This document shows, in pieces, positions 116 through 27,304 of a DNA stretch of 28,041 bases. Made by a program: the position numbers and the translations under genes. The DNA is from Methanocaldococcus jannaschii DSM 2661 (GTDB lineage: Archaea; AGJL01; Methanococci; Methanococcales; Methanocaldococcaceae). Numbering within the stretch: the first letter of the stretch is position 1; the number at the start of each line of letters is the position of its first letter. The stretch covers positions 325,539-353,579 of the forward strand of contig NC_000909.1 of assembly GCF_000091665.1 (NCBI RefSeq). The letters are read 5' to 3'. The notes beneath the pieces are model-generated. The model was not told the DNA's origin, ran no database searches, and was given only the letters and a program-made list of their open reading frames with translations.

Positions 116-265
116 AAACACCAACCCCTTTTACCGTTGCTATATTTTATCTTGGTTATTGGTTTTATATATTTTGGCTAAACCTTACTCTCTAAGTTTG
201 TTAATGGTAGATATTAGAAAAATTAATAGCAGAGGATAAAAAAAGAAAGACTACACCAGCAGACA

Positions 266-377
266 GTGTATTACAAAAAGAGAATACATTGAATTACAAT
301 GGCATACAAAAAAGAATACAAAAGAATACAAAGTAATACACAATAGAATACACTAAAATACAATGTCATACAAAAAT
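266..377. repeat. Three tandem ~32-bp units (281-312, 313-344, 345-376), each made of three ~10-12-bp WWTACA sub-repeats, plus a degenerate copy at 266-280
   Basis: TACA cores start at 272, 285, 295, 305, 317, 327, 337, 349, 359 and 369 (spacings 13,10,10,12,10,10,12,10,10). Units 1 and 3 are identical at 28/32 positions. Confidence 0.85.
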
Positions 378-398
378 AGCTAAATTTTAAAAATAGAT

Positions 399-866
399 TT
401 ACTCATAAGCTTCTGTTTCCTGTTTTTCCGTGTTTTCTTCTTTTACTTCTTCAATGTTTGCCATCATCCCAGCAACATTTATAGGTGGGAGTATAACCGG
501 AGGAATATTAGCGTTCGCCGTAATAGTTGAAATCAAAGCCCTAACATAAGGGAATAATATTGCAACAGAATTAATCTCTGCAAATTGTCTAACCTTATCA
601 ATCGCTTCCTCAATAACTTCAAAGAAACCCCATACTTCAACAGACAAATAAACTGGACTTTTAGCAAAATCCTTTTTCTCCCCAGCTGTTATTTTAATTA
701 TCGTTATAAATTTATTTGGCTCATTTTTATTGTATCTTATCTCTGTATCAATATTTACATTCAACCTTATCTTTTCATCTTTTTCAGGGACTTCATTTAG
801 TATAAATTCAATATGCTTAACAATATAATTGGAAAACTTTAAAGCACACTTTGGTGGAGCTTCCAT
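399..866 (-). CDS. SecB-like chaperone (155 aa)
   Basis: Same length as E. coli SecB and alignable by eye. AILFPYVRALISTITANANIPPVILPPINV matches SecB [30 protein letters not shown], and both have an acidic C-terminal tail. Last gene of a tight three-gene operon (2-nt gap to the upstream gene). Confidence 0.8.
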   Translation of the reverse strand: MEAPPKCALKFSNYIVKHIEFILNEVPEKDEKIRLNVNIDTEIRYNKNEPNKFITIIKITAGEKKDFAKSPVYLSVEVWGFFEVIEEAIDKVRQFAEINSVAILFPYVRALISTITANANIPPVILPPINVAGMMANIEEVKEENTEKQETEAYE

Positions 867-868
867 TT

Positions 869-1255
869 TTATGCCACCTCATAATTATTACAAATATGTA
901 AACTATCCTGCTGAAGGGTAATAATATAACTTGATTCTTCACCAACTTTTATATCCTCTTTAAATTTATATCCCTTCCTAAATTTACAATACATTTTATT
1001 ATCAGCATTTATTTCCTTTAAATTAATCTTAATAACAATCTGGTTGTGGGTGTTAACATTACAAGTTTGGGACTTCATTATTATCTCTCGATATTTAGCA
1101 ATATCCTCTTCAGTTAAGACCTCATCTGTAGCTAATGGACCTGGCTTTATCTTCCCAAACCCACACTCAATTAAATCCCTCTCAAATTGTTCTAAATCAA
1201 TATTTTCAAAATGTTTGTAAATTCTTTTTAATTCTTTTAATAAATCAAATGTCAT
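869..1255 (-). CDS. Hypothetical 128-aa protein; candidate antitoxin/adaptor of the ART-SecB-like operon
   Basis: Sits between the ART-like gene (8-nt gap) and the SecB-like gene (2-nt gap). I recognise no family. N-terminal half looks helical, C-terminal half beta-rich. Confidence 0.6.
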   Translation of the reverse strand: MTFDLLKELKRIYKHFENIDLEQFERDLIECGFGKIKPGPLATDEVLTEEDIAKYREIIMKSQTCNVNTHNQIVIKINLKEINADNKMYCKFRKGYKFKEDIKVGEESSYIITLQQDSLHICNNYEVA

Positions 1256-1263
1256 AATCTCAC

Positions 1264-1908
1264 CTATATTCCTAAATCTTCTTTATAAATTTCAGTATAA
1301 ATTAAGAATTTATCTATTGTCTTCTCCAAATCATACCACTCCAACTTTTTTATAACACTTGGATTTTTTACACACACTTGAATCTCAGGCATAAATGTTA
1401 ATCTATGTGTTCTTTCTTTATATTTTTTATTTTTCTCACGATTTTCTATTTTTTGATATTTTTTTACGGGTATTGGAAACAAAGCTCTAACAATATCGAA
1501 TCTTTTATTATAACCCAGCTCCTTGTTCTTGAACATATAATTTATAACAACCCCTTCCGCACACATGTCTCCTCTGAGTTTATCTAACCTCAATTTCGTA
1601 GTGTTAATTAACTTATACATCATGTCAAATAGGAGTTTATGTTCAATCTTCGTTAAATCAAAAATCCTCGATTCCTCACATATAACTTCTGCTTTTATTA
1701 TTGCAAAATTTTTTAGTAATCTATTGCGGTTCTTCTCCTTATACCATATCCACTTAAACGCATGGAACTCCTCTTCATAAAAATAAATACCATCCCCAAG
1801 CCAGTGGTTATCTCCTTGGCTGGGTAGTATCTCCTTACTTTCCATTATTTTTTCTGCACTCTTTCTGTCGGTCCCATGATACAGTGTCATTCTAACATAC
1901 GACATCAT
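1264..1908 (-). CDS. PARP-like (H-Y-E class) ADP-ribosyltransferase domain protein; candidate toxin
   Basis: TLYHGTDRKSAEKIMESKEILPSQGDNHWLGDGIYFYEE aligns with the PARP catalytic core (LWHGSR...GKGIYFAD). A later PEIQVCVKNPSVI resembles the catalytic-Glu strand (NEYIVYD). The N-terminus also recalls DUF3990-type LYHG proteins. The true start may be Met7 (1890). Confidence 0.6.
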   Translation of the reverse strand: MMSYVRMTLYHGTDRKSAEKIMESKEILPSQGDNHWLGDGIYFYEEEFHAFKWIWYKEKNRNRLLKNFAIIKAEVICEESRIFDLTKIEHKLLFDMMYKLINTTKLRLDKLRGDMCAEGVVINYMFKNKELGYNKRFDIVRALFPIPVKKYQKIENREKNKKYKERTHRLTFMPEIQVCVKNPSVIKKLEWYDLEKTIDKFLIYTEIYKEDLGI

Positions 1909-1967
1909 CCACCAATATTACTAATTACCCTAATAGTGTATCAGTTCCGAACTTTCCAGTATATTTT

Positions 1968-2007
1968 ATAGTATATATACAGGAGTATATACCTGTATAT
2001 ATACTAT
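1968..2007. promoter_or_regulatory. Perfect inverted repeat (16-bp arms, 8-bp spacer) rich in TATA-like sequence, 60 bp upstream of the ART-like gene
   Basis: ATAGTATATATACAGG (1968-1983) and CCTGTATATATACTAT (1992-2007) are exact reverse complements. Confidence 0.6.
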
Positions 2008-2225
2008 TATATACTCTATCTGATACTTTCCTGCCGACACCTATATTTACTTTTCGATTAATATCAACAGGGAACCTACATAGGTAGTAATAACAGATAC
2101 TGCTGAGTATCCATAGGACCAGCAGATAATATATTAATGATTGTTGATATGCTCACAATAGGACCAGAAAAAGAGAAGTTGAAAAGTTATTTTACAGTCA
2201 AATCGTAGCATTTTAAAACAGCCAC

Positions 2226-2633
2226 TTATTCAGTCCACCAAGTTCCAACAGCAATATCATACTTAGCAACTTTTTTACCTTCCTCCCCTATAGGTCCAAT
2301 AATTTTAAATCTAAACTTTTGTCCAGGGTCAACGTCCCTATGGACGTCCATGAACTCATCAATTAAAACACCATCAGCATCATAAAATCTTGCCTTTATT
2401 TCTACAAATTTTAACCTTTTATTACCTACATTCTGAGCAACCCCTTCAACATACACAGTCCCATAATCTTTCCTAACTAAATGATGCTCTAATATCTGAA
2501 CTGGGCAAGTCTCAGTTTCTGCAGATGCGGTGCTTGAAGAATAGTCAGTTCCTCCTCCACCAGTGCAACCACATATAGCAACCACACCACATACTATACT
2601 GGCAAGTATCAAAAACACACCCAGCCTTTTCAT
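2226..2633 (-). CDS. Secreted/lipoprotein-like protein with an FxLYD-like beta domain
   Basis: N-terminal signal peptide with a Cys-containing lipobox-like motif (VVAICGCTGGGG). The C-terminal domain contains RFYDADG, reminiscent of the FxLYD domain family. Confidence 0.55.
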   Translation of the reverse strand: MKRLGVFLILASIVCGVVAICGCTGGGGTDYSSSTASAETETCPVQILEHHLVRKDYGTVYVEGVAQNVGNKRLKFVEIKARFYDADGVLIDEFMDVHRDVDPGQKFRFKIIGPIGEEGKKVAKYDIAVGTWWTE

Positions 2634-3134: not shown

Positions 3135-3239
3135 ACTCACCAACTCCTTTTTTCTAATTCTATAATATATCAACTATGAAATATAAGCTTTATCAATGTG
3201 TGAAGAGGTTAGTATATTAACGATTGTTGATATTTTTAA

Positions 3240-3637: not shown

Positions 3638-3961
3638 TTATGCAGTTGAATTTACAATTTTATAATTAATAACGATGTCTTGGCCTTCTCTAAGAGTATC
3701 GAAAGTTTCAATAAGATCTAATATTTCTAAAGCTCTTTTACCTCTTGGGGTTATTGAATAATATACTTTTCCAAATTTATAAGGAGATTCTCCTTCTCTT
3801 TTTTCAACGAAACCTTCATTAACTAAATCAGATAATATTGAGTCCAAAATTTTTGGATGTAAATTTAAAGTCTTCTGTAATTCACTAAAATACATATCTT
3901 TACTATTTAGTAATTTTAAAACATCCTTTACGTGTTTTTTTGCCAGTATTTTGAGTATCAT
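3638..3961 (-). CDS. Winged helix-turn-helix transcriptional regulator (ArsR/PadR-like)
   Basis: 107 aa with a typical wHTH pattern (FSELQKTLNLHPKILDSILSDLVNEGFVEKRE...YYSITPRGKRAL). Transcribed divergently from the MCM operon. Confidence 0.65.
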   Translation of the reverse strand: MILKILAKKHVKDVLKLLNSKDMYFSELQKTLNLHPKILDSILSDLVNEGFVEKREGESPYKFGKVYYSITPRGKRALEILDLIETFDTLREGQDIVINYKIVNSTA

Positions 3962-4323: not shown

Positions 4324-6603
4324 ATGGTTTATGATAACATAAAAAGAGAAATTATAGGCATGTTAAAAAGAATGCCTAACAAACAAGCAGATTGGGATAA
4401 TGATTTATTACCTACTTTAAAGGCAATGTTTAACCCAAAATCAGTTTCAAACGCTAAATCCCAATTAATCTCTGAAGGTGTTATATCTCAAGAAATTGTT
4501 GATGGAAAGAAAATTATAACTCTCATTAAGGACCCTTATGAGCTTCAAGCTCCCAACGTATTTGACGAGGAAATGTTCTTGGCATACTATACTGATAAAT
4601 TAAAGGAGTATTTTAAACACAAGTTATCAACTGAAGGACCAGAGTGGGATATTTTTGACGTGAAAGAATTTATAATGCACTTCCCTGAATCTGGAGATTT
4701 GAATGATAAGTTAATAGAACACCCTTATGAAGTTAGGAAATCGATAACAAATGTATATATTGAAGCTTATGAAGAATTATTCAACGAAACACCTAACGTA
4801 GAATTTATCCACATTAGAAATCCTATTGATTGTAGAATTTCCTTATCTGAATTATCATCTGCCCATAAAGGAAAATTAGTAGAGTTTAGAGCAATGATTC
4901 TCCAAGCAACGAAACTTAAACTAAGGTATGCTAAGGGATTCTATTACTGTCCAAAGTGCGGAGCTACAAAGACATTGGATTTAGGATTTTGGGATAAACC
5001 TAAAGAAGTTGGAAAGTCATTAACATGTCCTGCTGATGGCTGTGATTGTAAAGGACTAATATTTGATGAAGATTTATCTGGCAAAGTTGATTTTCAGGAG
5101 ATTAAAGTTCAAACACCATTACAGGAGTCAATATATGCAAATAAACATTCTACAACTGTCTTCTATGAATTTAACAAACCAAAGAAAGCGGTATATTCTG
5201 GGTATGTGAAGATTGTTGGAGTTCCAATTGTTAAAGAAAATAAAAACGGGAGTGTTGGAGAATTATACATTCATGCTTTTTACATTGAAAAGGATGATGA
5301 AGATATTGAAGAAATAGCTAAAAACCTCAATGAAAAAGATTTAGAGCTTATTAATAGAATTGCTAAGGATAAGAACGTTATTCAAAAGCTTTCTGACTAT
5401 GCTTTTAGGGAAGTTACTGGATATGATATGATAAAAAGAGCTGTTTTATTACAGTTGGTTAGTAGTGGGACTAATATTGACATGAGAACGTCCATCCATA
5501 TTTTGATGATTTCCGACCCTGGGGTTGGAAAATCAACATTGATGGAGTCATTAATTCAGAAGTTTCCATTTGTTAAGAAAGTTTATGCTGTTACTTCATC
5601 AGGTCCTGGATTGGTCGGGTCTGTAGTCAGGGAGAAGGCAGAGTTTGGAGATAGTTGGGTATTAAAAGCTGGGGTTTTAACTGAGGCTGATGGGGGAGTT
5701 GTTTGTATTGACGAATTTTCAAGGAATAAAGAGGTATATGATTATCTCTTGGGAGTTATGGAACAGCAGAAGATTGAGATTAACAAGGCTGGAGTTATTG
5801 ATGCAGTATTGCCAGCAAGGGTTGCTATTTTAGCAGCATGTAATCCAAGGTTTGGAAGGTTTAATCCTGATTTAACCGTATGGGAGCAGATAAACTTGCC
5901 TAAGGAGTTATTGGATAGGTTTGATTTGATTTTTGTGATTAAAGATAAGATTGATAAAAAGAAAGATGAGGATATAGCAGATTTCTCTATTGATAATTAT
6001 AATTCAAAAGTTAGAGAGAGAAAAGGAAAATCTTCGGGTAAAAAGTTTGTAATAAATGGTGTTGAGTTGAATGATGAGTTGTTGCTGAAGTATGTTCTTT
6101 ATGCAAGACAAATAGAGCCAGAAATATCAGATGAAGCTCGTAAGATTATAAAAGAGTATTATGTTTCTGTAAGAAAAATGAGCGAAGCAAAAGGAACTTT
6201 TGGAATATCTGCAAGACAGTTAGGGTCTATAATCAGATTAGCAGTTGCTCATGCAAAGTTAAGATTGTCGGAAGTTGTTAAAGCGGTTGATGCAGAAGAG
6301 GCTATAAGGTTAGTTGATACCTGCTTAAAACAAATCGCCTACGACCCTGAGAGTGGTTCAATAGACATTGACAAAATAGCTGGAACTCCGAAATCTAAGA
6401 GGGATAAGGTTGAGAAGGTTCTGAATATTATTAAGGAAATTTCTAACTCAAGAGATGACGGCTTAGCTCCTGAAGAAGAGATATATGAAAGGGCTGAAAG
6501 GGCGGGTTTATCTGAGAAGGAAGTTGAGGATGCTATTAATTATCTGAAACGGGTTGGAGACATTTATTCTCCAAAGTCGGGTTATTGGCAACTTATGTCT
6601 TGA
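4324..6603 (+). CDS. mcm: MCM-family replicative helicase, divergent element-borne copy
   Basis: Cys cluster CPKCG...CPADGCDC, Walker A DPGVGKST, Walker B CIDEF, sensor-1 AACNP, and SARQLGSIIRL (MCM arginine-finger/sensor-2 region). Confidence 0.92.
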   Translation: MVYDNIKREIIGMLKRMPNKQADWDNDLLPTLKAMFNPKSVSNAKSQLISEGVISQEIVDGKKIITLIKDPYELQAPNVFDEEMFLAYYTDKLKEYFKHKLSTEGPEWDIFDVKEFIMHFPESGDLNDKLIEHPYEVRKSITNVYIEAYEELFNETPNVEFIHIRNPIDCRISLSELSSAHKGKLVEFRAMILQATKLKLRYAKGFYYCPKCGATKTLDLGFWDKPKEVGKSLTCPADGCDCKGLIFDEDLSGKVDFQEIKVQTPLQESIYANKHSTTVFYEFNKPKKAVYSGYVKIVGVPIVKENKNGSVGELYIHAFYIEKDDEDIEEIAKNLNEKDLELINRIAKDKNVIQKLSDYAFREVTGYDMIKRAVLLQLVSSGTNIDMRTSIHILMISDPGVGKSTLMESLIQKFPFVKKVYAVTSSGPGLVGSVVREKAEFGDSWVLKAGVLTEADGGVVCIDEFSRNKEVYDYLLGVMEQQKIEINKAGVIDAVLPARVAILAACNPRFGRFNPDLTVWEQINLPKELLDRFDLIFVIKDKIDKKKDEDIADFSIDNYNSKVRERKGKSSGKKFVINGVELNDELLLKYVLYARQIEPEISDEARKIIKEYYVSVRKMSEAKGTFGISARQLGSIIRLAVAHAKLRLSEVVKAVDAEEAIRLVDTCLKQIAYDPESGSIDIDKIAGTPKSKRDKVEKVLNIIKEISNSRDDGLAPEEEIYERAERAGLSEKEVEDAINYLKRVGDIYSPKSGYWQLMS

Positions 6604-6612
6604 TAATCAGAG

Positions 6613-6957
6613 GTGGGGAGTATGATTGAAATTAATTTCTCTCACGATTATTTCAAATTAAGAGAACAGAGATTTACAACAATTAGAAGCAAGCATTATC
6701 TGAAAAATAAGGGTTTGAGAGTTGGAGATGTTGTAAAAATTAAACATCCAAGTGGAGAGTTTCCTGCTAAAATCGTTGGAGTTGAGGTTAAAAGAATTTG
6801 TGATATTCCTTTAGAAATATTAAAGAAAGATGCAGAATTCGAAGGTTTTAACATAAAAACACATCAAGATTTTGTAGATTTGCTTAATAGTTTTATCCCT
6901 TACAAGTCTAATAAATTGACGACTGAAAAAGCCATTATTTACTTAGAAAGAGTGTGA
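6613..6957 (+). CDS. ASCH/PUA-like domain protein
   Basis: 114 aa. The N-terminal YFKLREQRFTTIRS...VGDVVKI pattern resembles ASCH/DUF3850-type domains. 9-nt gap after mcm. Confidence 0.45.
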   Translation: MGSMIEINFSHDYFKLREQRFTTIRSKHYLKNKGLRVGDVVKIKHPSGEFPAKIVGVEVKRICDIPLEILKKDAEFEGFNIKTHQDFVDLLNSFIPYKSNKLTTEKAIIYLERV

Positions 6958-6961
6958 TAGC

Positions 6962-7492
6962 ATGGCTAAGGCAATCATTGACATAGAAACTACTGGACTC
7001 AACCCTATGGAGCACCGTATAGTTGCCATTGGTGTAAAACTTGGGGATAGGGATATTATTCTGATGGATGAGTCAGAGTATTATTTGTTGGTTAATTTTT
7101 GGGATACGGTGGAAAAAGAAGGTATTGAGAAAATAATCGGCTTTAATATTGACTTTGATTGGCAGTTCCTAAAATTGAGAAGCTTATATCATAGGTTGAA
7201 AATAAAGCATTTCAGAAAATACCAAGGTAGAGTAGATTTAAGGCAGATATTGAATGGGAGTGGTGGGCAGTATAGGAAGGGAACAAAGTTAGTGGATTAC
7301 TGTAGGTTTTTGGGAATTGACGTTCCAGAAGATGACGCTAATGGTAGTGAAATTCCAGAGCTTTGGGAGAAGTTTGAAGAGGAAGGGGATGAAGAAGCTA
7401 AACGCAAAATCTGTGAGCATTTAAAGAGGGATTTAGAGAGAACTTGGGAGTTGTATAAAATATTAGTTGATTGTGGTTTGATTGAGGAATAA
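6962..7492 (+). CDS. DEDDh 3'-5' exonuclease (RNase H-like / DnaQ-like fold)
   Basis: ExoI DIETTG, ExoII NIDFDWQFL, ExoIII H-x4-D (CEHLKRDLE). Confidence 0.75.
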   Translation: MAKAIIDIETTGLNPMEHRIVAIGVKLGDRDIILMDESEYYLLVNFWDTVEKEGIEKIIGFNIDFDWQFLKLRSLYHRLKIKHFRKYQGRVDLRQILNGSGGQYRKGTKLVDYCRFLGIDVPEDDANGSEIPELWEKFEEEGDEEAKRKICEHLKRDLERTWELYKILVDCGLIEE

Positions 7493-7770
7493 TGCCTTTG
7501 GTGGGCTTTATGAAAGAGAAAAAGAGGGCAACATTTTATCTTTATAAAAACATTGACGGTAGGAAACTTAGGTATCTTTTGCATAAGTTGGAAAATGTTG
7601 AAAATGTGGATATAGATACTCTAAGAAGAGCAATTGAAGCTGAAAAGAAATATAAGAGGTCTATAACTCTCACAGAGGAAGAGGAGGTTATAATACAGAG
7701 GTTAGGTAAAAGTGCTAATTTGTTGTTGAACTGCGAGTTGGTGAAGTTGGATGAGGGAGAAAGAGCTTAA
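7492..7770 (+). CDS. Hypothetical protein (92 aa), translationally coupled (TAATG) to the exonuclease gene
   Basis: ORF in operon context immediately upstream of, and overlapping, the integrase gene. An excisionase-like role is only a guess. Confidence 0.5.
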   Translation: MPLVGFMKEKKRATFYLYKNIDGRKLRYLLHKLENVENVDIDTLRRAIEAEKKYKRSITLTEEEEVIIQRLGKSANLLLNCELVKLDEGERA

Positions 7771-8743
7771 ACATATTGAAAATCTTTTACTTTTGAAGGT
7801 TAAGAAAGAGAAAATTGAAGAGACAGATAAAATTAAAGAATATTTAAAAAGGTTTGAAGATGAAAGGAGATTTGATGGGATAAAAGAGAGCACTATAAAG
7901 AGTGATTTAGACAGGTTGAGAGTGTTTTTAGATTATTGCATTAATTACCTTGGAAAAAATCCAGAAGAGTTAAAAACAAGTGATTTCGTTAAATTTTTTA
8001 ATTATTTAGATACGGTTAGAAAAGTATCTAAAAGTTCGCAGAGGAAGTATTTTTTATTATTAAAAGTGTTTTATAGAGTTTTAAGAATGTATAATGTTAT
8101 TCAGGAGTTCGTTGAAGAGAGTAAGGATAGGAAGAGGTTCGCGAGAATTGAAATCCAACATTATGATGCTGTTGATGCTGAAATGTTGAATATGATTTTA
8201 AAGAAGATAATTGAAAGTGGGAGTAGGACCAGGATAAGGGATGCGTTAATAATCAGGTTACTTTGGGACACTGGTTGTAGGGTTTCTGAGGTTCTTAATT
8301 TGAAATACAAGGATTGTGATTTAGACAATGGCATATTTAAGATTCGAAATACCAAAACTCATGAGGAGAGGACTGTTGTTTGTTCATCGGATACTTTAGA
8401 GTTGCTTAGGAATTATGTTCAGTTTAATGTAAGGCAAGGTTCAGATGACTATTTGTTCCAGAATTCTCAGGGTGGGAGGGTTAGAAAAGAGTGGATTAGT
8501 GAAGTGTTTAGAAAGGCAGTGAATGAATTGAAAGAGGAGGGTAAAATCCCTAAAAATAGGCGTATTGTTATTCATAGTATAAGACACGGAAGGGCGGTAG
8601 ATTTATTGAATAAGGGAGTGCCCATCGACATCGTAAAGGAATACTTAGGACATAAGTCGATGAACACTACTTTGATTTATGCTCATTCTAAGGAGAGGGC
8701 TGAGAGTTTGGAGTTTATTAAAAAGTTGTTGAGAATCCAGTAA
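7751..8743 (+). CDS. int: Tyrosine recombinase / integrase (XerC/D-like)
   Basis: Catalytic signature: DTGCRVSE (Arg), HSIRHGRA (His-x-x-Arg), LGHKS, and LIYAH (nucleophilic Tyr). Confidence 0.92.
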   Translation: MREKELKHIENLLLLKVKKEKIEETDKIKEYLKRFEDERRFDGIKESTIKSDLDRLRVFLDYCINYLGKNPEELKTSDFVKFFNYLDTVRKVSKSSQRKYFLLLKVFYRVLRMYNVIQEFVEESKDRKRFARIEIQHYDAVDAEMLNMILKKIIESGSRTRIRDALIIRLLWDTGCRVSEVLNLKYKDCDLDNGIFKIRNTKTHEERTVVCSSDTLELLRNYVQFNVRQGSDDYLFQNSQGGRVRKEWISEVFRKAVNELKEEGKIPKNRRIVIHSIRHGRAVDLLNKGVPIDIVKEYLGHKSMNTTLIYAHSKERAESLEFIKKLLRIQ

Positions 8744-14378: not shown

Positions 14379-15143
14379 ATGAGGGAGAGTATGAGAATTG
14401 AGTTAGAGTTACAGACAGACAACTTCACAGTAATTCCTTATAATCATCAGTATTATTTGGCATCAGCCATATACAATAAAATTCACTCTGCAAATCCTGC
14501 CTATGCTAAAAGATTACATAATTATCAGAAGTTTAAGTTCTTTACTTTTTCTTTATTGCAGATTAGAAAGAGGGTTATTAGAAAGGAAGGGATTGAAACT
14601 ATAGATGGGAAGGCATATCTCTATATATCCTCACCAAACAATGAGTTTATTGAGAATTTTGTTGCTGGACTCTTAGAGGATGGAAAGTTGAGAGTAGGAA
14701 ATGTTGAATTCTTTGTAAGAAAGGCTAAAATTCTACCAATTCCAAAGAAATTCAATATATTAAAAACCATATCTCCAATTTACTTAAAGACGATGATTGA
14801 GACAGAAGATGGTTTAAAAACTTATGATTTATTACCAAACAATTCTAAATTTTATGAAAACTTAAAGAATAATCTAAAAAAGAAATATGAAGCATTCTAT
14901 AATGAAAAATGTGACATGAACTTTGAATTTGAAGTCTTAAAATTTAGACCTAAAAGGATGAGAATAAAAAATGATATTTATTGTAGGTGTTCTGAAATGG
15001 TGTTTAAGGTCTGGGGGGACTACGATTTAATAAAATTTGGTTATGAGTGTGGTTTTGGAGAGAAGAATAGTATGGGTTTTGGAATGGTTGTAAATGTTGA
15101 AGATAAAAATCAAAAAAATAAAAAACTCAAAACAAAAATTTAA
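14379..15143 (+). CDS. cas6: Cas6 CRISPR RNA endoribonuclease
   Basis: C-terminal glycine-rich loop GFGEKNSMGFGMV; size and cas context fit. Confidence 0.85.
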   Translation: MRESMRIELELQTDNFTVIPYNHQYYLASAIYNKIHSANPAYAKRLHNYQKFKFFTFSLLQIRKRVIRKEGIETIDGKAYLYISSPNNEFIENFVAGLLEDGKLRVGNVEFFVRKAKILPIPKKFNILKTISPIYLKTMIETEDGLKTYDLLPNNSKFYENLKNNLKKKYEAFYNEKCDMNFEFEVLKFRPKRMRIKNDIYCRCSEMVFKVWGDYDLIKFGYECGFGEKNSMGFGMVVNVEDKNQKNKKLKTKI

Positions 15144-15506
15144 TTGTGGCTAATAATTGTTAATATCTCCTATTTACTTTTTCATTATTGCATAAAAACG
15201 TGTTAAACAAAATCATTTATTAATCATACTACATAACTCATAACAACCTATTTATACACTTCTATCTTTTAACAACTTTTCAATCTTTACTTTATTTTCA
15301 TATACTTTATATATAAGCTTTACATATAAATGTTAGTTTATTTATTTAAATCTAGATTATATCGATACGTTTATATATAGGTTATTTCAAAATATCTATT
15401 ATTTAAAATTAAATTTGTTAAAAAGTCATATCTAAACTGGTGAAGATATGCTCACTATACCTCTTGATAATTTTATAAAACAAAGAATACTTTTTTTACC
15501 ATTTAT

Positions 15507-18214
<2,708 letters not shown>

Positions 18215-18317
18215 AATTTTATGTTACTTCGAAGATACGTCAAAAGTGAGCTAAGAGGCATTGCTTCTGCAAAGAAGCAATGCATCCTGGGTATCCCAAT
18301 AGGGCGAAGCCCTATGG
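18215..18317 (+). other. GC-rich ~100-nt insert with two strong hairpins between cas4 and cas1; candidate structured ncRNA or MITE-like insertion
   Basis: Hairpin 1 at 18258-18283 is GCATTGCTTC-TGCAAA-GAAGCAATGC (10-bp perfect stem). Hairpin 2 at 18299-18315 is ATAGGGC-GAA-GCCCTAT. Local GC is clearly above the AT-rich background. Confidence 0.45.
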
Positions 18318-18367
18318 TATCAGAAAATCTGCAAAATTGTGCTTATTATGAGTTATGTTTTATTTAA
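18318..18367 (+). pseudogene. Decayed duplicate of the cas4 3' end
   Basis: TATCAGAAAATCTGCAAAATTGTGCTTATTATGAGTTATGTTTTATTTAA parallels cas4 18164-18214. It still encodes [10 protein letters not shown]-stop in one frame, but a 1-nt deletion breaks the link to YQKICK. Confidence 0.7.
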
Positions 18368-19971
<1,604 letters not shown>

Positions 19972-19987
19972 AAATACTTCTTATGTA

Positions 19988-20013
19988 TATATTTTACTTC
20001 GAAGTAATATATA
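19988..20013. promoter_or_regulatory. 26-bp near-perfect palindrome centred on TACTTCGAAGTA in the csa3/csa5 divergent promoter; candidate Csa3 operator
   Basis: TATATTTTACTTC (19988-20000) versus GAAGTAATATATA (20001-20013): one mismatch between arms, with TATA-like sequence on both flanks. Additional TACTTC copies at 19975-19980 and 20025-20030. Confidence 0.55.
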
Positions 20014-20079
20014 AATACTTTGTATACTTCTACGAAATTCCTTAGTAAAGTTTATATTTTCCCATATTAATATTATGTA

Positions 20080-20436
20080 GTGTCAATAGATGAGGTGATA
20101 AAGTTGGAGAATTGGATGAAAAATATTGGAAGATATCTTAGCTACCTTATAAGCGATAAGTTTGAGGAATATGCTTATGACATCATTGATGGAGTAGCTA
20201 AAGCAAGAAATGCAAATGAACTTTTAGAAGCGTTATATAAAGGATTAAGATTGTCCCCAAAACTAAAAAAGAAAGGAAATATTGAAGTCCCATCTCCAGA
20301 GGACGTAAAAAAGTTGGAAGAAACTTTGAGAGAAATCGGAGATAATGAAAAGGAAGTTAGAAAAATTGGATTAAGCATGGCACTCTGGGCTTTTGCAGAC
20401 TGGGAAAAAGACCACAGAAAAAGAGGTGATCAGTAA
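20080..20436 (+). CDS. csa5: Csa5 (Cas11-type small subunit, type I-A); GTG start
   Basis: 118-aa helical protein at the position of the I-A small subunit, immediately upstream of and overlapping (TAATG) cas7. The call is mostly positional. Confidence 0.6.
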   Translation: MSIDEVIKLENWMKNIGRYLSYLISDKFEEYAYDIIDGVAKARNANELLEALYKGLRLSPKLKKKGNIEVPSPEDVKKLEETLREIGDNEKEVRKIGLSMALWAFADWEKDHRKRGDQ

Positions 20437-21398
20437 TGTTCTTGAGAATCTCAGGAAGAGTTAGGTTGAATTCCCATTCTTTAAATGCCCAAGGTGGGGG
20501 AGGAACAAATTATGTGGAGATAACAAAAGCTAAGGTTAGCATAAAGAATGATGATAGATGGGAAATCCTTGAAGTGCCAGCAATTTCTGGAAATATGGTT
20601 AAGCATTGGCATTTTGTAAGCTTTGTTGATTTCTTTAGAGAGACAGATTACAAAGATAATTTAACAGAAAGGGCTTTGAGATATAATGGGGCAAGGTTTG
20701 GACAGGAAACTAAAGCCAAAAAAGCTGATGGTTCTGAAGTTGAATTGAAGGATGAAAGTGAAATCATTAAAAACTTTGCTGATGCAGATGTTCATGGATT
20801 TCTAGCTCCAAAAACTGGAGTTAGAAGAGTTTCTCTTGTAAAAACCTCATTTATACTCCCAACAGAAGATTTCATAAAAGAAGTAGATGAAAGGCTCGTT
20901 TATGCTGTAAAGCATAATAGAGTTGATATTGATGAAAAAGGAGCAATAAAATCTGGAGAAGAACAAACTGCCCAAATGTTATTTAATAGAGAGTATGCAA
21001 CTGGGCTGTATGGATTTGAAATCATATTAGATTTGGGATTTGTTGGAGTTCCTCAATCATCTCCATCAAATCCAGTTATTGAAGATGATGAAAGAAAAGC
21101 AAGAATAGTATCGGCATTAAAAGCTTTGATTCCAATGCTAAGTGGTTATATTGGAGCAAATTTAGCCAGGTCATTCCCAGTATTTAAACTTGAAGAAATG
21201 ATAGCGGTTGTTAGTGAAAAACCAATACCTGCCTTAGTTCATGGATTCTATGAGGATTATGTAGAAGTAAGCAAAAACGTTGTAGAAAATGCAAAGAAAC
21301 TTGGATTTGAGATTGAGGATTTCGGATACAATGTAGATTTTGGTGAGAGCGTTTCATCAGTTGAAGAGCTAATCTCAAAAATAATAGAGAAATTATAA
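20436..21398 (+). CDS. cas7: Cas7 (Csa2) backbone subunit, type I-A
   Basis: N-terminal GRVRLNSHSLNAQGGGGTNY and ISGNMVKHWH are typical of the Csa2/Cas7 family. Confidence 0.88.
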   Translation: MFLRISGRVRLNSHSLNAQGGGGTNYVEITKAKVSIKNDDRWEILEVPAISGNMVKHWHFVSFVDFFRETDYKDNLTERALRYNGARFGQETKAKKADGSEVELKDESEIIKNFADADVHGFLAPKTGVRRVSLVKTSFILPTEDFIKEVDERLVYAVKHNRVDIDEKGAIKSGEEQTAQMLFNREYATGLYGFEIILDLGFVGVPQSSPSNPVIEDDERKARIVSALKALIPMLSGYIGANLARSFPVFKLEEMIAVVSEKPIPALVHGFYEDYVEVSKNVVENAKKLGFEIEDFGYNVDFGESVSSVEELISKIIEKL

Positions 21399-21407
21399 AT
21401 TGAGGGG

Positions 21408-22145
21408 TTGATTATGGAGGCTTTAGTAGCTCTCCTCCGATTTCCATTCTATTCTTTTGGAAAACAGTCTTATCAAGTTAGACAATCTTTGCTATTACCA
21501 TCTCCATCAGCATTAAAAGGGGCATTAGCTAAGGGAATTATATTGCTTGGTGGAAAAAAAGGAAAGAGTTTAGATGAAATTGCTAAAAAAACTGTTGAAG
21601 AATTGGAAAATAAGCTCATCTATGTCGGAGCAAAGCCATACAAAAGTAGTATCATAAAAACCCCAATTCTACTAAAGAGACTTAGAAACTTAGAAGATCA
21701 AAAAAATCCAGAAAAAAGTGACGCAATGAGAAGAGAATATGTATTTGCAAGGGAGATTTTAGCTATTTATGTTTTTAGGAGAAAGTTGAGTGAAGAAGAA
21801 AAAGATCTAATGCTTAAGGCAGTTTATTTAATTGACCAGCTCGGAGATACTGAGTGTGTGGGAAATGTGATTAAAACTGAATGGGTTGAAGTAAAAGAAG
21901 AAAAAGCTCCTCTAAAAACCTATGTGAAGTTTAAAAAAGTATCAAAAATGAGCATAAATGGAGGTATTATTGAAAATATGCTTGAAACTCCAAATTTTGG
22001 AAATAAAGTAAAAGAAGAGCCGTATTTACTACCACTTATTGAAAAACGTTATAGAAGAAGCTCATATTACGTTGAATCAGATAGAATTTTTGACGGAAAT
22101 TACAAAATTATTGCCTTTGATGAGGTGATTGGGTTATGGATATAA
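21408..22145 (+). CDS. cas5: Cas5 (type I-A); likely start at the ATG at 21414 after RBS GAGGGG
   Basis: N-terminal Cas5 pattern LRFPFYSF...[17 protein letters not shown]. Confidence 0.8.
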
Positions 22146-23980
22146 TTAATTTTTTTAAACAAATTACAGATCATGAGCCTTATGATTATCAAATTAGGGC
22201 ATGGGAAAAGATTAATAAAATTATGGAACTTGGGGGGAGGGTAGTAATAGAGATACCAACTGCTGGTGGAAAAACAGAAGCAGCAATTATTCCCTACTTA
22301 TATCAATTCATCTCCAACGATTGGAAAGTTCCAAGATTAATCTATGTTCTTCCGACACGTTCACTTGTTGAAAAACAGGTAGAAAGAATCAGGAATTATA
22401 TTAAAAAAATTCTTGAAATAAAAGGATATTCAAAGGATAAAGTTGAGGAATTAGCTAAAAAAATAGTTCAAGTTGAGTATGGATTAGAGGAAACCCATGC
22501 TTTCTTAGGGTTTGTTGTTTTAACTACTTGGGATACATTTCTTTATGGGTTAGCAGCCCATAGGACTGTTGGAGATAGATTTACCTTCCCATGTGGGGCA
22601 ATTGCTCAAAGTTTAGTAGTTTTTGATGAAATACAGATGTATCAGGATGAAAGCCTTTACATGCCGAGATTGATTGGATTGGTAGTTAAAAGATTGGTAG
22701 AAGCTAACGTTCCATTAGTCTTTATGACAGCGACACTTCCAACAGAGCTTAAAAAAATACTTGGCATACACGATGAAGAACCAATAACCGTTAATCCAGA
22801 AGATACGAAAAAACCAGAGAGAGGAGAAGTAGTTGTTGAATTTAAGGAAAAATTAAGTGACGAAGAACTTAGTAATGAAATCAAAAAAGCAATAAATGAA
22901 GGAAAAAAGGTGTTGATAATAAAAAACACTGTAAACAGTGCCATAGAGGTTTATGAAAAAGTAAAGCAACTTGGAAATTCATTACTCCTACACTCAAGAT
23001 TTACAGTAGAAGATAGAGCAGAAAAAGAGAAAGACATTGATAAAGCCGAGATAATTGTTGCTACACAGGTGGTTGAAGCAGGTTTGGATTTGACAAATGT
23101 AGGGCTTGTAATAACTGATTTAGCTCCATTAGATGCATTAATACAAAGAATAGGAAGATGTGCAAGAAGAAAAGGAGAAAGAGGCAAAGTAATAGTTGTA
23201 TTGCCAAATTTTAATGAGAAAATAAATGAAGACCATAGGGAAAAAGTAATTTTAGGATTTAAAAATATCCCATTTGAAAATGCCTATGTAACACTGGTAA
23301 ATAACAAAGATTATGGGAGAGTTATTGAATTAACTATTGAAACAATTGAAGAGAAAAAAGGAAAGAGCAAAATCGTCCCTAAAAAGTTTTACATCGGTGA
23401 TTTGGGAAACAAGACAATAAGAAAGCTTATTGAAAATAACAAAATTCTGAAGAAAAAAGATCTATACTTTATTCCATATTCAACACAGCCCTATGATCCA
23501 TTAATTATGATAAAAAGCTTTGATGAAGTTGAAAGTGTTAGTGAATATTTATACGACATAATTAAAGCTCGTGAGGCTTTAGATAGGGTTTATAAGGAAT
23601 ATTATGAAAACAACATAGTCCCTAAAGACTATTACTCTGCCTACATATATTTCAGAGAGTTAAAACTCTTTTCTACACCTCCAGAATATGAACTCAAGGC
23701 AAGACCAGAAATGTTTGCAATATTGTATCCATTAGAAAATGCTGAAGAAAAAGTAAAAAATAAAGAAATAATTGAGTTTAATCCAAAATATGTTATTCGT
23801 GTGAGCTATAACTGGCTTAAAAACAAGTGGGAGAAGTTTGATAAAAAATTTGAGTTAATTAAAGAATACGATGAGAAAGGTTGGATATGTAGTCTTAAAA
23901 AAGCTGGAAAACTACAACCTTACAAAATCTACATAATTGATGACAAATATTACTCTAAAGAAACTGGGATAATAATTTAA
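22136..23980 (+). CDS. cas3': Cas3' helicase (stand-alone SF2 helicase)
   Basis: Walker A PTAGGKTE, a DEIQ box, and motif [13 protein letters not shown]. No HD domain. Confidence 0.9.
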
Positions 23981-23986
23981 CAAACT

Positions 23987-24721
23987 TTGATTTTGGGTGA
24001 GATTATGGAAGTTTTAGCCTTTAAAAATCAATCCCTTATTGATCATGTTAACGATATGGTCAAATATTGGGAGAGAATAAAATATAGATACTTAAAAACT
24101 ATAAAGAGAGCTTTAGAGGCTTTAAACATAAAGTTAGATATCGAAAAAGTTGATGAATTTATGAAGATTTTGATAAAACTTCACGATATTGGTAAAGCTT
24201 CAAAGATATATCAAAGAGCTATCATTAACGATCAAGAAAAACTCATGGGCTTTAGACATGAGCTTGTTAGTGCTTACTATACTTATCACATTCTCCTTAA
24301 AAAATTTGGTGATAAAAACCTTGCCTTCATTGGAGCTTTAACTGTAATGCTCCACCATGAGCCGATTATTATGGGTCAAATAAGAAATCTTAAAAAGAAA
24401 GAATTGACAGCTGAAGTCGTGCTTGATAAGCTAAAAAAGTTTGATGGAATGATTGAAGATTTTGAAGATCTTATTAAAAAGTTAATTGGATATTCAATAG
24501 GGGATATAATTAAAAATGATTCTAATAAGGACGATATTATCAGATTTGTTATCGAAATGAGTGTTAGAGCAAGACATACACCAAATTCAGAGAAGCTTAG
24601 ATTTATTGTTGGAACTCTGCTTTTACCTTTAGTCATGTGTGATTATAAAGGGGCTGAGAGTAGAGAAGGAAAAGCTCCAAAGTTTGCAGAAGTTTTGGAG
24701 GTTGAGAGTTATGTTATTTGA
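23987..24721 (+). CDS. cas3'': Cas3'' HD nuclease (stand-alone); likely start at the ATG at 24005
   Basis: Full HD motif set: LIDHV, LHDIGK, FRHE, MLHHEP, and a C-terminal MCDYKG. Confidence 0.9.
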   Translation: MILGEIMEVLAFKNQSLIDHVNDMVKYWERIKYRYLKTIKRALEALNIKLDIEKVDEFMKILIKLHDIGKASKIYQRAIINDQEKLMGFRHELVSAYYTYHILLKKFGDKNLAFIGALTVMLHHEPIIMGQIRNLKKKELTAEVVLDKLKKFDGMIEDFEDLIKKLIGYSIGDIIKNDSNKDDIIRFVIEMSVRARHTPNSEKLRFIVGTLLLPLVMCDYKGAESREGKAPKFAEVLEVESYVI

Positions 24722-25766
24722 GACACCAGGATATAATGAGATACTTGATTTATATATAGCTTATGGAGTAGTTGAGTGTTTAGTTAGAGAAGGCGTTGAA
24801 AATCTCAGATTTTTCCCAATTGGGAATAAATATTGTATTGTAGTTGAAGAACCTACTAATGTAAATATTAAAAATAGAATTGAAAAGGGAATGTTAAATG
24901 CATTGGAGGATATGCTTTCCCTGCATAAAGCTATTGGTAAGTATATTTCCACAAAGGAGGATATCAAAATTATAAGTGATGTTGATTTTAGTGCAGGTGC
25001 AAATATTAATAACGTTTATTGGGATGGAATTCCAAAAACTCTTGAAAAGATAAAAGAAAATATTAAAAAAGGAAAATTATCTACAAAGAGTAAAAATACA
25101 GTGCCACTTACTTTAATGCCAGCTGCTGGTAAATATATGCCAAAAATTTATGGTGTAAAAGGTGGAAATCCAATAAAAATAGATGATTCCAACTATGCCC
25201 TTGCCTGGATTGGTTTCCATTATTATGCTCCATACATAAATATATCAGACAATAGAGCAACATATATTCATATTTATGCCATAAAACCTCTTGAAGAATT
25301 AGGACTTATTGAAATCCTTGCTTTAAAAGATTTAAAAAAGAAAATTAACAACTATCAACTTGGAAAATATAAATTTTTTGTAAATAAAAAATTGGCACTG
25401 CTATATCATTTAACCCATACTGAATCAATAAGTGCCTTGGAAATAGTTACAAAAAAGAATTTTTCAGTTGTTAGTTACACTCTCGAGAATGTTGATAACA
25501 ATCAAGCAATACGATCTTTTGGAGAGTATGATTTATCAAAACTTATGGACTTTTTATGGTATTTAAAAGCTACTGATTTCTATAATACAATCCAGTTTGT
25601 AGATAACATACTTAGAGGTGATTTAGAAGTTTCCCTAACCTTCATAGATGGTATTCTTTATGATGACTTAGATGCAGTATATTCAGCTATAAGAAAGTTA
25701 AAAAGTGTAAGAATATCTCCTCTAATTATTCAGAGTATTTTGGAATGGTTTGGAAATTTTTATTAA
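24711..25766 (+). CDS. cas8a: Cas8a-type large subunit (Csa4/Cas8a2-like), type I-A
   Basis: Last gene of the interference operon, in large-subunit position. The start is chosen at the ATG at 24711 (RBS GGAGG upstream, 11-nt overlap with cas3''). The track ORF begins at 24639 inside cas3''. Confidence 0.65.
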   Translation: MLFETPGYNEILDLYIAYGVVECLVREGVENLRFFPIGNKYCIVVEEPTNVNIKNRIEKGMLNALEDMLSLHKAIGKYISTKEDIKIISDVDFSAGANINNVYWDGIPKTLEKIKENIKKGKLSTKSKNTVPLTLMPAAGKYMPKIYGVKGGNPIKIDDSNYALAWIGFHYYAPYINISDNRATYIHIYAIKPLEELGLIEILALKDLKKKINNYQLGKYKFFVNKKLALLYHLTHTESISALEIVTKKNFSVVSYTLENVDNNQAIRSFGEYDLSKLMDFLWYLKATDFYNTIQFVDNILRGDLEVSLTFIDGILYDDLDAVYSAIRKLKSVRISPLIIQSILEWFGNFY

Positions 25767-26107
25767 ATAATATCATCAATTGGATTCTTTTCTAAACCTA
25801 AAATCTCTCTTTTTGGCATAAAATTTAATGGAAATTGGTAGATAATTACTGAATCTTCATCTTCATCAATAATTCTCAAAATTCCATCTTTTATTCTTTC
25901 AAACTCTGCCTTTGTAACTTCTCCCTCAAAAACACTATTCTGAACCCAATTTAAGTGCTTTCTCAAAAAGCTTTTTATCTTATTTACTCTTGAAACATTC
26001 ACATCATAGACAATAATAACATACATACTCTCATCTTGAAGAAGGTTTCTTATATTTTTAATTTTCTTCAAGATTTTATTTACATAGTCCCATTCTTTTT
26101 TTAACAT
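25763..26107 (-). CDS. cas2: Cas2; the conserved core starts at Met28 (ATG at 26026), so the 27-aa N-terminal extension is uncertain
   Basis: MYVIIVYDVNVSRVNKIKSFLRKHLNWVQNSVFEGEV... is the canonical Cas2 ferredoxin-fold start. Confidence 0.88.
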   Translation of the reverse strand: MLKKEWDYVNKILKKIKNIRNLLQDESMYVIIVYDVNVSRVNKIKSFLRKHLNWVQNSVFEGEVTKAEFERIKDGILRIIDEDEDSVIIYQFPLNFMPKREILGLEKNPIDDII

Positions 26108-26124
26108 TGATTATCTTCTAATGA

Positions 26125-26930
26125 GTTTCCATTCCCTTCTCCCTATTCATCTGTTGTTTCCATTCCCTGAGGGATCTGATTTTACGGAGTTGAAGCTCAT
26201 AAAATTGTCCAAGATGTCGATTTATTTCCATTCCCCGAGGGATCTGATTTTACATTCAATAAAAAAAAATAAGATAAAAAATCTTATTTAAGATTTCCAT
26301 TCCCTGAGGGATCTGATTTTACGTCATCTTCTATTTGTTGTATGTATTTTAATACGGTATTTCCATTCCCCGAGGGATCTGATTTTACCATATTGCTCTT
26401 CCCCATCTGGTTCATCAGTGTAAGCATTATTTCCATTCCCCGAGGGATCTGATTTTACTATTTTTCCAATTGTTCAGGGGAAAGTCCTCCCTTCATTTCC
26501 ATTCCCCGAGGGATCTGATTTTACGTGGATTACCAGCTGATATGGGATTAGGTAGTGGATTATTTCCATTCCCCGAGGGATCTGATTTTACGATGAGAGA
26601 GTTATTTATGTAAGTGTTAAAGTTGTAGAAATTTCCATTCCCCGAGGGATCTGATTTTACATAATAATAGAGATAATACAGTTCCCAAAATGAATAAATT
26701 TCCATTCCCCGAGGGATCTGATTTTACTTAACTCAACTTTTATTGAAGTTATTTTTATGTTGATTTGTATTTCCATTCCCCGAGGGATCTGATTTTACAC
26801 AATAGAGGTAAAAGAGGTTATAGGGTAATATTTGATTTCCATTCCCCGAGGGATCTGATTTTACGATTTAATCTGAGTATTTTGTACATTTTGAGGAGCA
26901 ATTTCCATTCCCCGAGGGATCTGATTTTAC
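26125..26930 (-). CRISPR. CRISPR array: 12 intact 30-nt repeats, 11 spacers (36-41 nt) and a 12-nt repeat remnant at the cas2-proximal end
   Basis: Plus-strand repeat is ATTTCCATTCCCCGAGGGATCTGATTTTAC. Repeats start at 26156, 26224, 26293, 26359, 26429, 26495, 26562, 26631, 26698, 26769, 26835 and 26901. Variant repeats (26156, 26293) and the remnant (26125-26136) are at the left end. The minus-strand reading ends in ...ATGGAAAT, like the canonical archaeal ATTGAAA(G/C) 5'-handle source. Confidence 0.97.
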
Positions 26931-27304
26931 AGGGGGACTTTTTCAATATATTATACCTTAACTCTCCTGATATTTAAGCTTTTCTATACCATAATTTCTT
27001 AAGGATAAATAACCGTTTTGCAATATAAACCTTATGGTAGTTAAATTCTTATTTCTTTAATAAAAATAATCATTTTTATCACTTTAAATTTGAAAGTGTT
27101 TGTTATTTATTGGGGAAATCTTACTCCTAAATGTATTTAGCCCTTACTCCCAAAAACCTAAATAATTTAATACATCCAAATTAATAAAATGTTTAAAATA
27201 AGCCACCCTTAGAAATCAAATTTAAACTTCTATTAAATAAGTTAAGAAAAGAGTTAAAGAAATTAATTCCAAATATAAAATCTTTTAACGTGATACTATT
27301 CAAA
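26931..27304 (-). promoter_or_regulatory. CRISPR leader (AT-rich, ~370 bp)
   Basis: Non-coding AT-rich block next to the end of the array with perfectly conserved repeats, opposite the degenerate end. Confidence 0.7.

Follow-up and report, generated by a model that had tools for sequence, protein, structure and literature searches.

In a stretch of 28,041 nucleotides (nt) from Methanocaldococcus jannaschii DSM 2661 (NC_000909.1, positions 325,539 to 353,579; the whole stretch is called the window below), we found a compact three-gene operon that is likely to be an archaeal member of the CmdTAC (PD-T4-9) toxin-antitoxin-chaperone (TAC) operon family, located beside an integrated element with MCM helicase and integrase genes. 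A first-pass annotation made from the letters alone had taken the operon for a TAC-like module with an ADP-ribosyltransferase (ART) toxin on a mobile element, and the family models, the fold, the conservation of the motif and the gene neighbourhoods now bear this out. The family membership of the toxin and the chaperone, the ART fold, the catalytic motif, the architecture of the antitoxin, the gene triad and the mobile-element context are all seen directly. The three genes, with coordinates from the listing of open reading frames (ORFs) and lengths in amino acids (aa), are:

1264 to 1908, minus strand: toxin gene ORF1, MJ0359 (MJ_0359), cmdT-like, 214 aa
869 to 1255, minus strand: antitoxin gene ORF2, MJ0358, cmdA-like, 128 aa
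399 to 866, minus strand: chaperone gene ORF3, MJ0357, a cmdC-like gene for a SecB-type toxin-antitoxin (TA) chaperone, 155 aa

The ORF listing confirms the three minus-strand ORFs of the first-pass annotation together with their short gaps, which are of 8 nt between ORF1 and ORF2 (1256-1263) and of 2 nt between ORF2 and ORF3 (867-868). ORF1 is 100% identical to MJ_0359 of M. jannaschii DSM 2661. Just 5′ of the three ATGs the sequence reads GGTGG, GGTGA and GAGGTG, which are purine-rich and Shine-Dalgarno-like.

The reference system was found as PD-T4-9 in E. coli ECOR22 and later renamed CmdTAC; it is an abortive-infection system (PMC9519451, PMC11618068, bioRxiv 10.1101/2024.02.24.581848). 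It consists of CmdT, an ADP-ribosyltransferase resembling exotoxin A; CmdA, described as an 'unknown protein'; and CmdC, a chaperone of the SecB-like type (PMC9519451). It may be noted that CmdA is too variable for calling the system (PMC9519451, PMC11618068). The calling rule of 2024 places CmdT and CmdC within two genes of each other (PMC11618068), and ORF3 lies two genes downstream of ORF1. The rule of 2022 asks only for 'a second downstream ORF' between the two, the antitoxins varying widely (PMC9519451), and in our locus the 128-aa ORF2 stands between toxin and chaperone.

ORF1 matched PD-T4-9_A of the PADLOC defence families nearly over its full length (E 3e-12, residues 10-186) and none of the other PADLOC families. 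It also matched phrog_14664 (1.4e-19); the PHROGs families of ORF1 and ORF3 are virus-borne and of unknown function. In Pfam, an N-terminal match to Tox-ART-HYD1 stayed below the cutoff (E 0.0068) and DUF3847 was the other family listed, while NCBIfam gave nothing meaningful for ORF1 or ORF2, and a PDB sequence search with ORF1 returned zero matches even at E 10. The AlphaFold2 (AF2) model of ORF1 has a predicted local distance difference test score (pLDDT) of 87 and a predicted template-modelling score (pTM) of 0.83, and its best Foldseek matches in the PDB are the ART-fold toxins VPA0770 (2.5e-4), NatT, MbcT, RhsP2 and exotoxin A (ExoA). ART-fold proteins hold ranks 1-4, 6-10 and 13-14 of these matches, of which one only has E <=1e-3. 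AF2 and Foldseek thus place ORF1 in the ART fold, a check that the first-pass annotation had itself proposed. Its label 'PARP-like' has to be dropped, as Pfam, read up to E 1, lists no PARP family for ORF1, PARP4 and tankyrase appear in Foldseek only at E 0.85-1.2, and the nearest structures are bacterial ART-fold toxins and exotoxin A. An assignment to the DarT/ParT type was also set aside, the PADLOC match being to PD-T4-9_A only; the likeness to these toxins is one of analogy.

The catalytic positions were followed through the family. A profile search with ORF1 against a database of 1.84 billion representative proteins gave 1885 clusters at E <=1e-3, 479 at E <=1e-10 and 90 at E <=1e-30. 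A 16-sequence alignment shows the conserved blocks YHGT, HWLGDGxYF and QxCxxN, and among 136 near-full-length homologues H11 is conserved in 96%, Y42 in 97%, Q177 in 87% and C179 in 97%. Of the H-Y-E core proposed earlier, the first two residues therefore stand and the third position is a glutamine, Q177 (E175 lies two residues upstream), with all three positions being conserved. This fits the motif HY-[E,D,Q] of CmdT, in which the change Y41A abolishes both toxicity and defence (PMC11618068). Together the model and the conservation support ORF1 as a CmdT-like, ART-fold protein with an H11/Y42/Q177 (HY-[EDQ]) motif.

For a direct comparison we located a genuine E. coli locus by searching a primer from the supplement of PMC11618068 against complete E. 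coli genomes:

L029 1947-3160 (1214 bp), E. coli N2250 (NZ_CP189474.1): cmdTAC locus between a DinI-like gene and phage portal/terminase genes

Its three genes match PD-T4-9 A, B and C at 4e-97, 3e-38 and 7e-61 in the order T-A-C, as in the M. jannaschii operon, and its length of 1214 bp is that of the published ECOR22 system. We take its surroundings to be a P2-like prophage. RefSeq annotates this locus as two hypothetical proteins and a 'protein-export chaperone SecB'. The profile of the archaeal toxin matched E. coli CmdT with an hhalign E of 1e-4, and in a joint MAFFT alignment H11, W36, G40, Y42, F43, W53 and C179 are invariant and Q177 nearly so. Y42 of ORF1 aligns with Y43 of N2250 CmdT. 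The CmdT construct of the published work begins at GTGCAGGTAGTTCAT (primer CD7), and the RefSeq start of CmdT is two codons upstream of it; we infer that N2250 Y43, and with it the aligned Y42, corresponds to the catalytic Y41 in the numbering of the paper, because the CD7 construct begins two codons inside the RefSeq ORF.

ORF3 matched PD-T4-9_C (E 2.3e-23) and no other defence family. The alignment of the last ORF with SecB, as reported in the first-pass annotation, holds in Pfam, where the SecB match has E 4.5e-11 and 43.3 bits for a gathering cutoff of 26. The NCBIfam SecB equivalog cutoffs span 103-277 bits, and ORF3 scores far below them (best SecB score 48.1 bits vs a cutoff of 143; TIGR00809 33.6 vs 102.8); therefore it resembles SecB without being a true one. 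With E. coli CmdC the BLASTP match has E 2e-08, and phmmer gave weak matches to the PDB SecB structures of E. coli and H. influenzae (E 0.011). When ORF3 and ORF1 were searched by tblastn in collections of phages and plasmids, either none or short partial matches only were obtained. MJ0357 is probably the chaperone belonging to a CmdTAC-type module that came in with a mobile element.

The middle protein is more variable. The AF2 model of ORF2 has helices at 5-17 and 21-30 (pLDDT 77-86) and falls below 50 over residues 59-128; it was built on a shallow alignment of 10 sequences because few homologues were retrieved (1 match with the word-based search, 9 with a profile), and the low confidence of the tail is suggestive of disorder rather than proof of it. 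The middle genes of 17 aligned triads have in common with ORF2 an N-terminal motif LKxIxEHFxNI..EEFE..LIxxG..I, and the middle proteins of homologous triads have variable tails rich in Tyr and Phe. The aromatic-rich tail of ORF2 ends in -YEVA, and a C-terminal AA or VA is present in 14 of 17 bacterial middle proteins. Four archaeal-type antitoxins (that of M. jannaschii at 108-115, P0018, and those of contigs L001 and L006) also carry a tail motif S-[SDG]-Y-x-[IF]-x-[IL]-[QN], which reads ESSYIITLQ in the window and ESGYEFNIQ in L006. The part of the ORF2 tail around Y110 and IITL 111-114 is on these sequence patterns a candidate chaperone-addiction (chaperone-binding) region. In E. coli CmdA the paired N-terminal helices are accompanied by a long unstructured tail with LAA at its end, and ClpP degrades the protein (PMC11618068).

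Homologous genes co-occur in many other genomes, as the first-pass annotation had suggested should be checked. The triad of toxin, small ORF and SecB-like gene was present in all 4 metagenome neighbourhoods and in 11 of 13 named-genome loci (Bacillota, Halanaerobium, Armatimonadota). Of the two exceptions, L014 keeps only a 47-aa C-terminal fragment of the chaperone and L017 runs off the contig end. The triad was also seen in 2 further archaeal-type contigs and 3 IMG/VR viral contigs. In the archaeal-looking L001 it lies beside genes with Pfam MJECL32 and MJECL33 matches, and L006, which looks archaeal too, carries genes for an archaeal histone and for PadR, PadR being present in the window also. 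The closest named relatives are Firmicute and Halanaerobium triads, for example those of Paenisporosarcina sp. TG20, Zhenhengia yiwuensis, Holtiella tumoricola and Clostridium perfringens, all of them uncharacterised. Their toxins are 28-39% identical to MJ0359 over the matched tblastn segments and their antitoxins share the same N-terminal motif, except that the bacterial antitoxins are shorter (70-92 aa). The chaperones of the metagenomic bacterial triads L003 and L005 are ~40% identical to MJ0357. A scan of a genome collection made with one peptide pattern brought up bacterial genomes only, missing even M. jannaschii, and is uninformative on other cultured archaea.

Set against E. coli CmdTAC, the M. 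jannaschii locus is likewise a compact T-A-C operon on a mobile element. ORF1 shares with CmdT the H, the WLxxGxYF motif, the QxC, the catalytic Tyr and the PD-T4-9_A match; ORF2 is predicted to share with CmdA two N-terminal helices, a disordered aromatic tail and a small aliphatic C-terminal dipeptide; and ORF3 matches PD-T4-9_C and Pfam SecB. The two differ in that the M. jannaschii host is a hyperthermophilic archaeon, that MJ0359 is only ~23% identical to CmdT and falls into a second PADLOC subfamily (models PDLC04068 and PDLC04072 for our locus vs PDLC04069 and PDLC04071 for E. coli), that ORF2 has 128 aa vs 77 aa, no detectable sequence similarity to CmdA and an end in -EVA vs -LAA, and that the M. 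jannaschii promoter contains a 16-bp palindrome (described below).

The canonical TAC systems (M. tuberculosis HigBA-SecB(TA), MqsRAC and HicAB-C) also encode a SecB-like chaperone with a TA pair, and their antitoxins end in a disordered segment that contains aromatic residues, the chaperone-addiction (ChAD) extension (bioRxiv 10.1101/2024.02.24.581848). In contrast to these, the M. jannaschii toxin is predicted to be an ADP-ribosyltransferase and not an RNase, and the N-terminal domain of ORF2 has no known HigA, MqsA or HicB DNA-binding fold. With the diphtheria toxin/exotoxin A (H-Y-E) clade, which includes the PARPs, ORF1 shares the ART fold and a predicted layout with H on the first strand, Y on the second and Q/E where a late strand begins; it differs in having no PARP or diphtheria toxin-family Pfam match and a Gln as third residue, and the known substrate of the CmdT family is mRNA and not protein. 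ORF3 has the Pfam SecB domain and weak phmmer matches to SecB structures in common with the export SecB of Proteobacteria, which differs in that archaea have no SecA partner for such a protein and that the ORF3 type is always found in a TA triad. A metagenomic locus (L023 645-1629) holds another TAC type: directly after a Zn-ribbon/helix-turn-helix, MqsA-like antitoxin with a C-terminal -DAA comes a SecB-like chaperone that shares 34% identity with MJ0357.

The flanks of the operon carry the following features:

1968 to 2007, no strand: 16-bp perfect inverted repeat with arms ATAGTATATATACAGG / CCTGTATATATACTAT, ~60 nt upstream of the toxin ATG
372 to 393, minus strand: two T5 tracts (389-393 and 372-376) right after the ORF3 stop codon, kept in L006

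The perfect inverted repeat seen in the first-pass annotation is present, with arms at 1968-1983 and 1992-2007 that are complementary in 16 of 16 positions around an 8-nt spacer, and it is unique in the window, where no second perfect inverted repeat reaches 12 nt at a loop length of <=20 nt. Inverted repeats of at least 14 nt were found in 0 of 100 first-order Markov simulations. The palindrome overlaps TATA-like octamers, and the related archaeal contig L006 retains it at 15 of 16 positions. It may serve as a candidate operator/promoter element. That it could be a family-wide feature was rejected, since it was found only in the closest relative L006 and not upstream of more distant homologues. 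A gene for a PadR/HxlR-type winged-helix regulator is present upstream of the operon both in the window (3638-3961, minus strand) and in L006 (562-891), and the regulator at 3638-3961 could be what binds the promoter palindrome. Also upstream of the operon, at 2108-2150 and 3191-3233, lies a 43-nt direct repeat, imperfect (74%) and ending in ATATTAAYGATTGTTGATAT. At the other end, the T5 tracts are probably the oligo-T terminator of the operon, of the archaeal type, because oligo-T tracts serve as transcription termination signals in archaea. A scan for sigma-70 promoters and hairpin terminators stayed at background level, and is irrelevant for an archaeon.

The comparison with L006 (window 399-2060 vs L006 2100-3800) gave the following identities at the nucleotide level:

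Promoter region including the palindrome: 86%
Toxin codons 1-16: 92%
Rest of the toxin gene: 57%
Antitoxin gene: 56%
Chaperone gene: 90.5%

The corresponding protein identities are ~37% for the toxins, ~30% for the antitoxins and 90% for the chaperones. Since the toxin body and the antitoxin have diverged while the promoter and the chaperone are near-identical, this comparison of sequences indicates an exchange of the toxin-antitoxin unit, with the promoter and the chaperone gene on either side left in place. On the minus strand, 3′ of the oligo-T tracts, ~11 repeats of the type TGTAT(T/G) were seen at window 250-395 with periodicities of ~10-11 nt and 32 nt. This array is ~90% conserved in L006, the homology ending abruptly near window 250, and it looks like iterons or recombinase arm sites.

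Further features of the window are:

2226-2633, minus strand: 135-aa ORF in the interval from the operon to the PadR gene; its N-terminus resembles a signal/lipobox sequence (…AICGCTGG…), and it matches phrog_14275 weakly
4324-8743, all in one orientation: MCM helicase (759 aa), 114-aa unknown ORF, RNase-H-like 3′-5′ exonuclease, DUF2540 and tyrosine integrase
14379-26931: complete type I-A CRISPR-Cas locus with Cas6, two Cas3-type helicases, Cas4, Cas1, Csa3 regulator, Csa2/Cas7 and Csa4/Cas8a2
26224-26931: CRISPR array of 11 repeats, Rfam CRISPR-DR39

The block at 4324-8743, 2.4 kb from the operon, is an integrated element of a type known in Methanococcales. A search of the window for att-type direct repeats bounding the element gave nothing convincing, and its left border probably lies outside the window. 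The region is defence-rich in that the TAC module is ~12 kb from the CRISPR-Cas locus.

In E. coli, the T4 capsid protein, when freshly synthesised, drives CmdA off CmdC, and CmdT, once free, ADP-ribosylates adenine at N6 within the GA dinucleotides of single-stranded RNA, which blocks translation (PMC11618068); the same conclusions were reached for a second E. coli CmdTAC (O112ab:H26) by Mets et al. in 2024 (bioRxiv 10.1101/2024.02.24.581848). The toxicity, RNA target, trigger, protease and antiviral role of the M. jannaschii operon can be proposed by homology with this system. In the resting state, MJ0359, MJ0358 and MJ0357 would be co-translated from one transcript and form a complex in which MJ0359, as an NAD+-dependent ADP-ribosyltransferase, would be bound and neutralised by the N-terminal helices of MJ0358. 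The disordered aromatic tail of MJ0358 would leave this protein unstable unless it is held by a SecB-like tetramer of MJ0357. By analogy with E. coli, the trigger may be a mass-produced viral structural protein that competes for the chaperone, for instance the HK97-type capsid protein of a tailed archaeal virus, which is plausible because a tailed virus of Methanocaldococcus, MFTV1, exists (PMC8651126). The freed antitoxin would then be degraded by the PAN-proteasome or Lon in place of ClpXP, without which E. coli CmdTAC is inactive (PMC11618068, bioRxiv 10.1101/2024.02.24.581848). The freed toxin would ADP-ribosylate single-stranded mRNA (the GA dinucleotides in E. coli), so that translation would stop and the infection would be aborted. 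As a tentative reading that goes beyond family membership, and that we consider possible without favouring it strongly, the operon may be the first working archaeal CmdTAC immune module, active at ~85 degrees C and rewired so that turnover is by the PAN-proteasome or Lon, the sensor is tuned to the capsids of archaeal tailed viruses, and recombination swaps toxin and antitoxin while the promoter/operator before them and the chaperone gene after them stay fixed.

A number of observations weigh against the assignment to CmdTAC or against its antiviral mode of action. The sequence link between ORF1 and E. coli CmdT is weak (23% identity, hhalign probability 58%), the Foldseek template-modelling scores (TM-scores) of ORF1 are only ~0.4, and its best Foldseek matches are NAD+-degrading RES/ART toxins and not RNA-modifying ones. 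Neither ORF2 nor 10 homologous middle proteins matched PADLOC PD-T4-9_B, and so a rule requiring all three PADLOC models would probably miss the locus. The profile of the middle proteins against E. coli CmdA gave an hhalign E of 0.28, which is not significant, and for this reason we do not claim homology of ORF2 with CmdA but a shared architecture only. The ClpXP dependence of the E. coli system also sits badly with the host: to our knowledge ClpXP is absent from archaea such as M. jannaschii, so an archaeal version would need another protease or none. M. jannaschii PAN unfolds ssrA-tagged substrates in vitro, so a C-terminus that is small and hydrophobic could still serve as a degron; yet the -VA terminus is found in only 2 of 6 archaeal-type antitoxins, which makes aggregation or another route equally possible. 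We know of no virus of M. jannaschii itself, and the toxicity, RNA modification and virus response of the locus are predictions. It may be noted that ten shorter relatives (~180-195 aa) among the profile matches were no nearer to the E. coli-type model than the archaeal toxin is.

Some of these points bear on what the toxin does. It could be an ART-fold NAD+ glycohydrolase/phosphorylase like the RES-domain toxin MbcT or NatT, or a modifier of protein or DNA, such that NAD+ depletion or another target would take the place of mRNA. Several of the best Foldseek matches being the NAD+-degrading NatT and MbcT speaks for this, and with 23% identity to E. coli CmdT the target specificity could have drifted; however, PADLOC matches PD-T4-9_A only, and the conserved residues are H-Y-Q with the CmdT-specific W36, G40, F43 and C179 and not the R-E-S residues of RES toxins, so that we consider such an activity quite unlikely. 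The reading of MJ0357 as a general-purpose archaeal SecB-type chaperone, adjacent to MJ0359 and MJ0358 by chance, could appeal to the work of Ha et al. 2004, who, as cited in PMC4361572, studied MJ0357 as a SecB homologue with SecB-like physicochemical properties. Against it, the triad recurs in every complete homologous locus examined, be it in bacteria, archaeal-type contigs or viral contigs, and the protein, far below the SecB equivalog cutoffs, has its best match in the TA-chaperone model PD-T4-9_C. SecA is absent from archaea, and UniProt had a single archaeal SecB sequence in 2014 (PMC4361572); the latter argues for horizontal acquisition with the module. We regard a general chaperone role as extremely improbable.

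With the CmdTAC-type module itself accepted, its selected role could still be addiction, that is, post-segregational stabilisation of the MCM/integrase element or of plasmid relatives, and not an antiviral one. The operon adjoins the integrated element, the L001 triad adjoins its genes with MJECL32 and MJECL33 matches, and the module fits the classical addiction logic of a labile antitoxin with a stable toxin. The exchange of a toxin-antitoxin cassette between near-identical flanks is, on the other hand, more like the diversification of defence genes, and the only members studied experimentally are prophage-borne defence systems (PMC9519451, PMC11618068). Addiction in place of defence therefore appears unlikely to us, and the two roles are not mutually exclusive.

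The combination of genes that the first-pass annotation pointed out, without being able to say whether it had been described, is real but was already known from 2022-2024 as CmdTAC/PD-T4-9. The architecture itself is therefore not new; the novelty lies in its host, which is a hyperthermophilic archaeon. The surveys of Vassallo covered bacterial genomes only (PMC9519451, PMC11618068), we found no mention of archaea in the CmdTAC Nature paper or its supplements (PMC11618068), and Mets et al. mention them generically only (bioRxiv 10.1101/2024.02.24.581848). An archaeal CmdTAC was not found in our full-text literature search, and the names of the three M. jannaschii genes led there to one paper, PMC4361572. 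The context of the locus explains an old oddity, namely the 'SecB' MJ0357 in the SecA-less M. jannaschii, an orphan homologue since 2004 going by what is cited of that work. The locus would extend the mRNA ADP-ribosylation antiviral family and the TAC principle to Archaea and to hyperthermophiles, and it poses the mechanistic question of how a strictly ClpXP-dependent system would work in an archaeon. The thermostable M. jannaschii proteins are possible reagents for structural work on the T-A-C complex, and the mosaic with L006 shows a natural modularity in which toxin and antitoxin are exchanged under a constant chaperone. If the proposed scheme is true, immunity by RNA ADP-ribosylation would reach the third domain of life, and the operon would show in nature the kind of modular TA/chaperone swapping that Mets et al. 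brought about by engineering.

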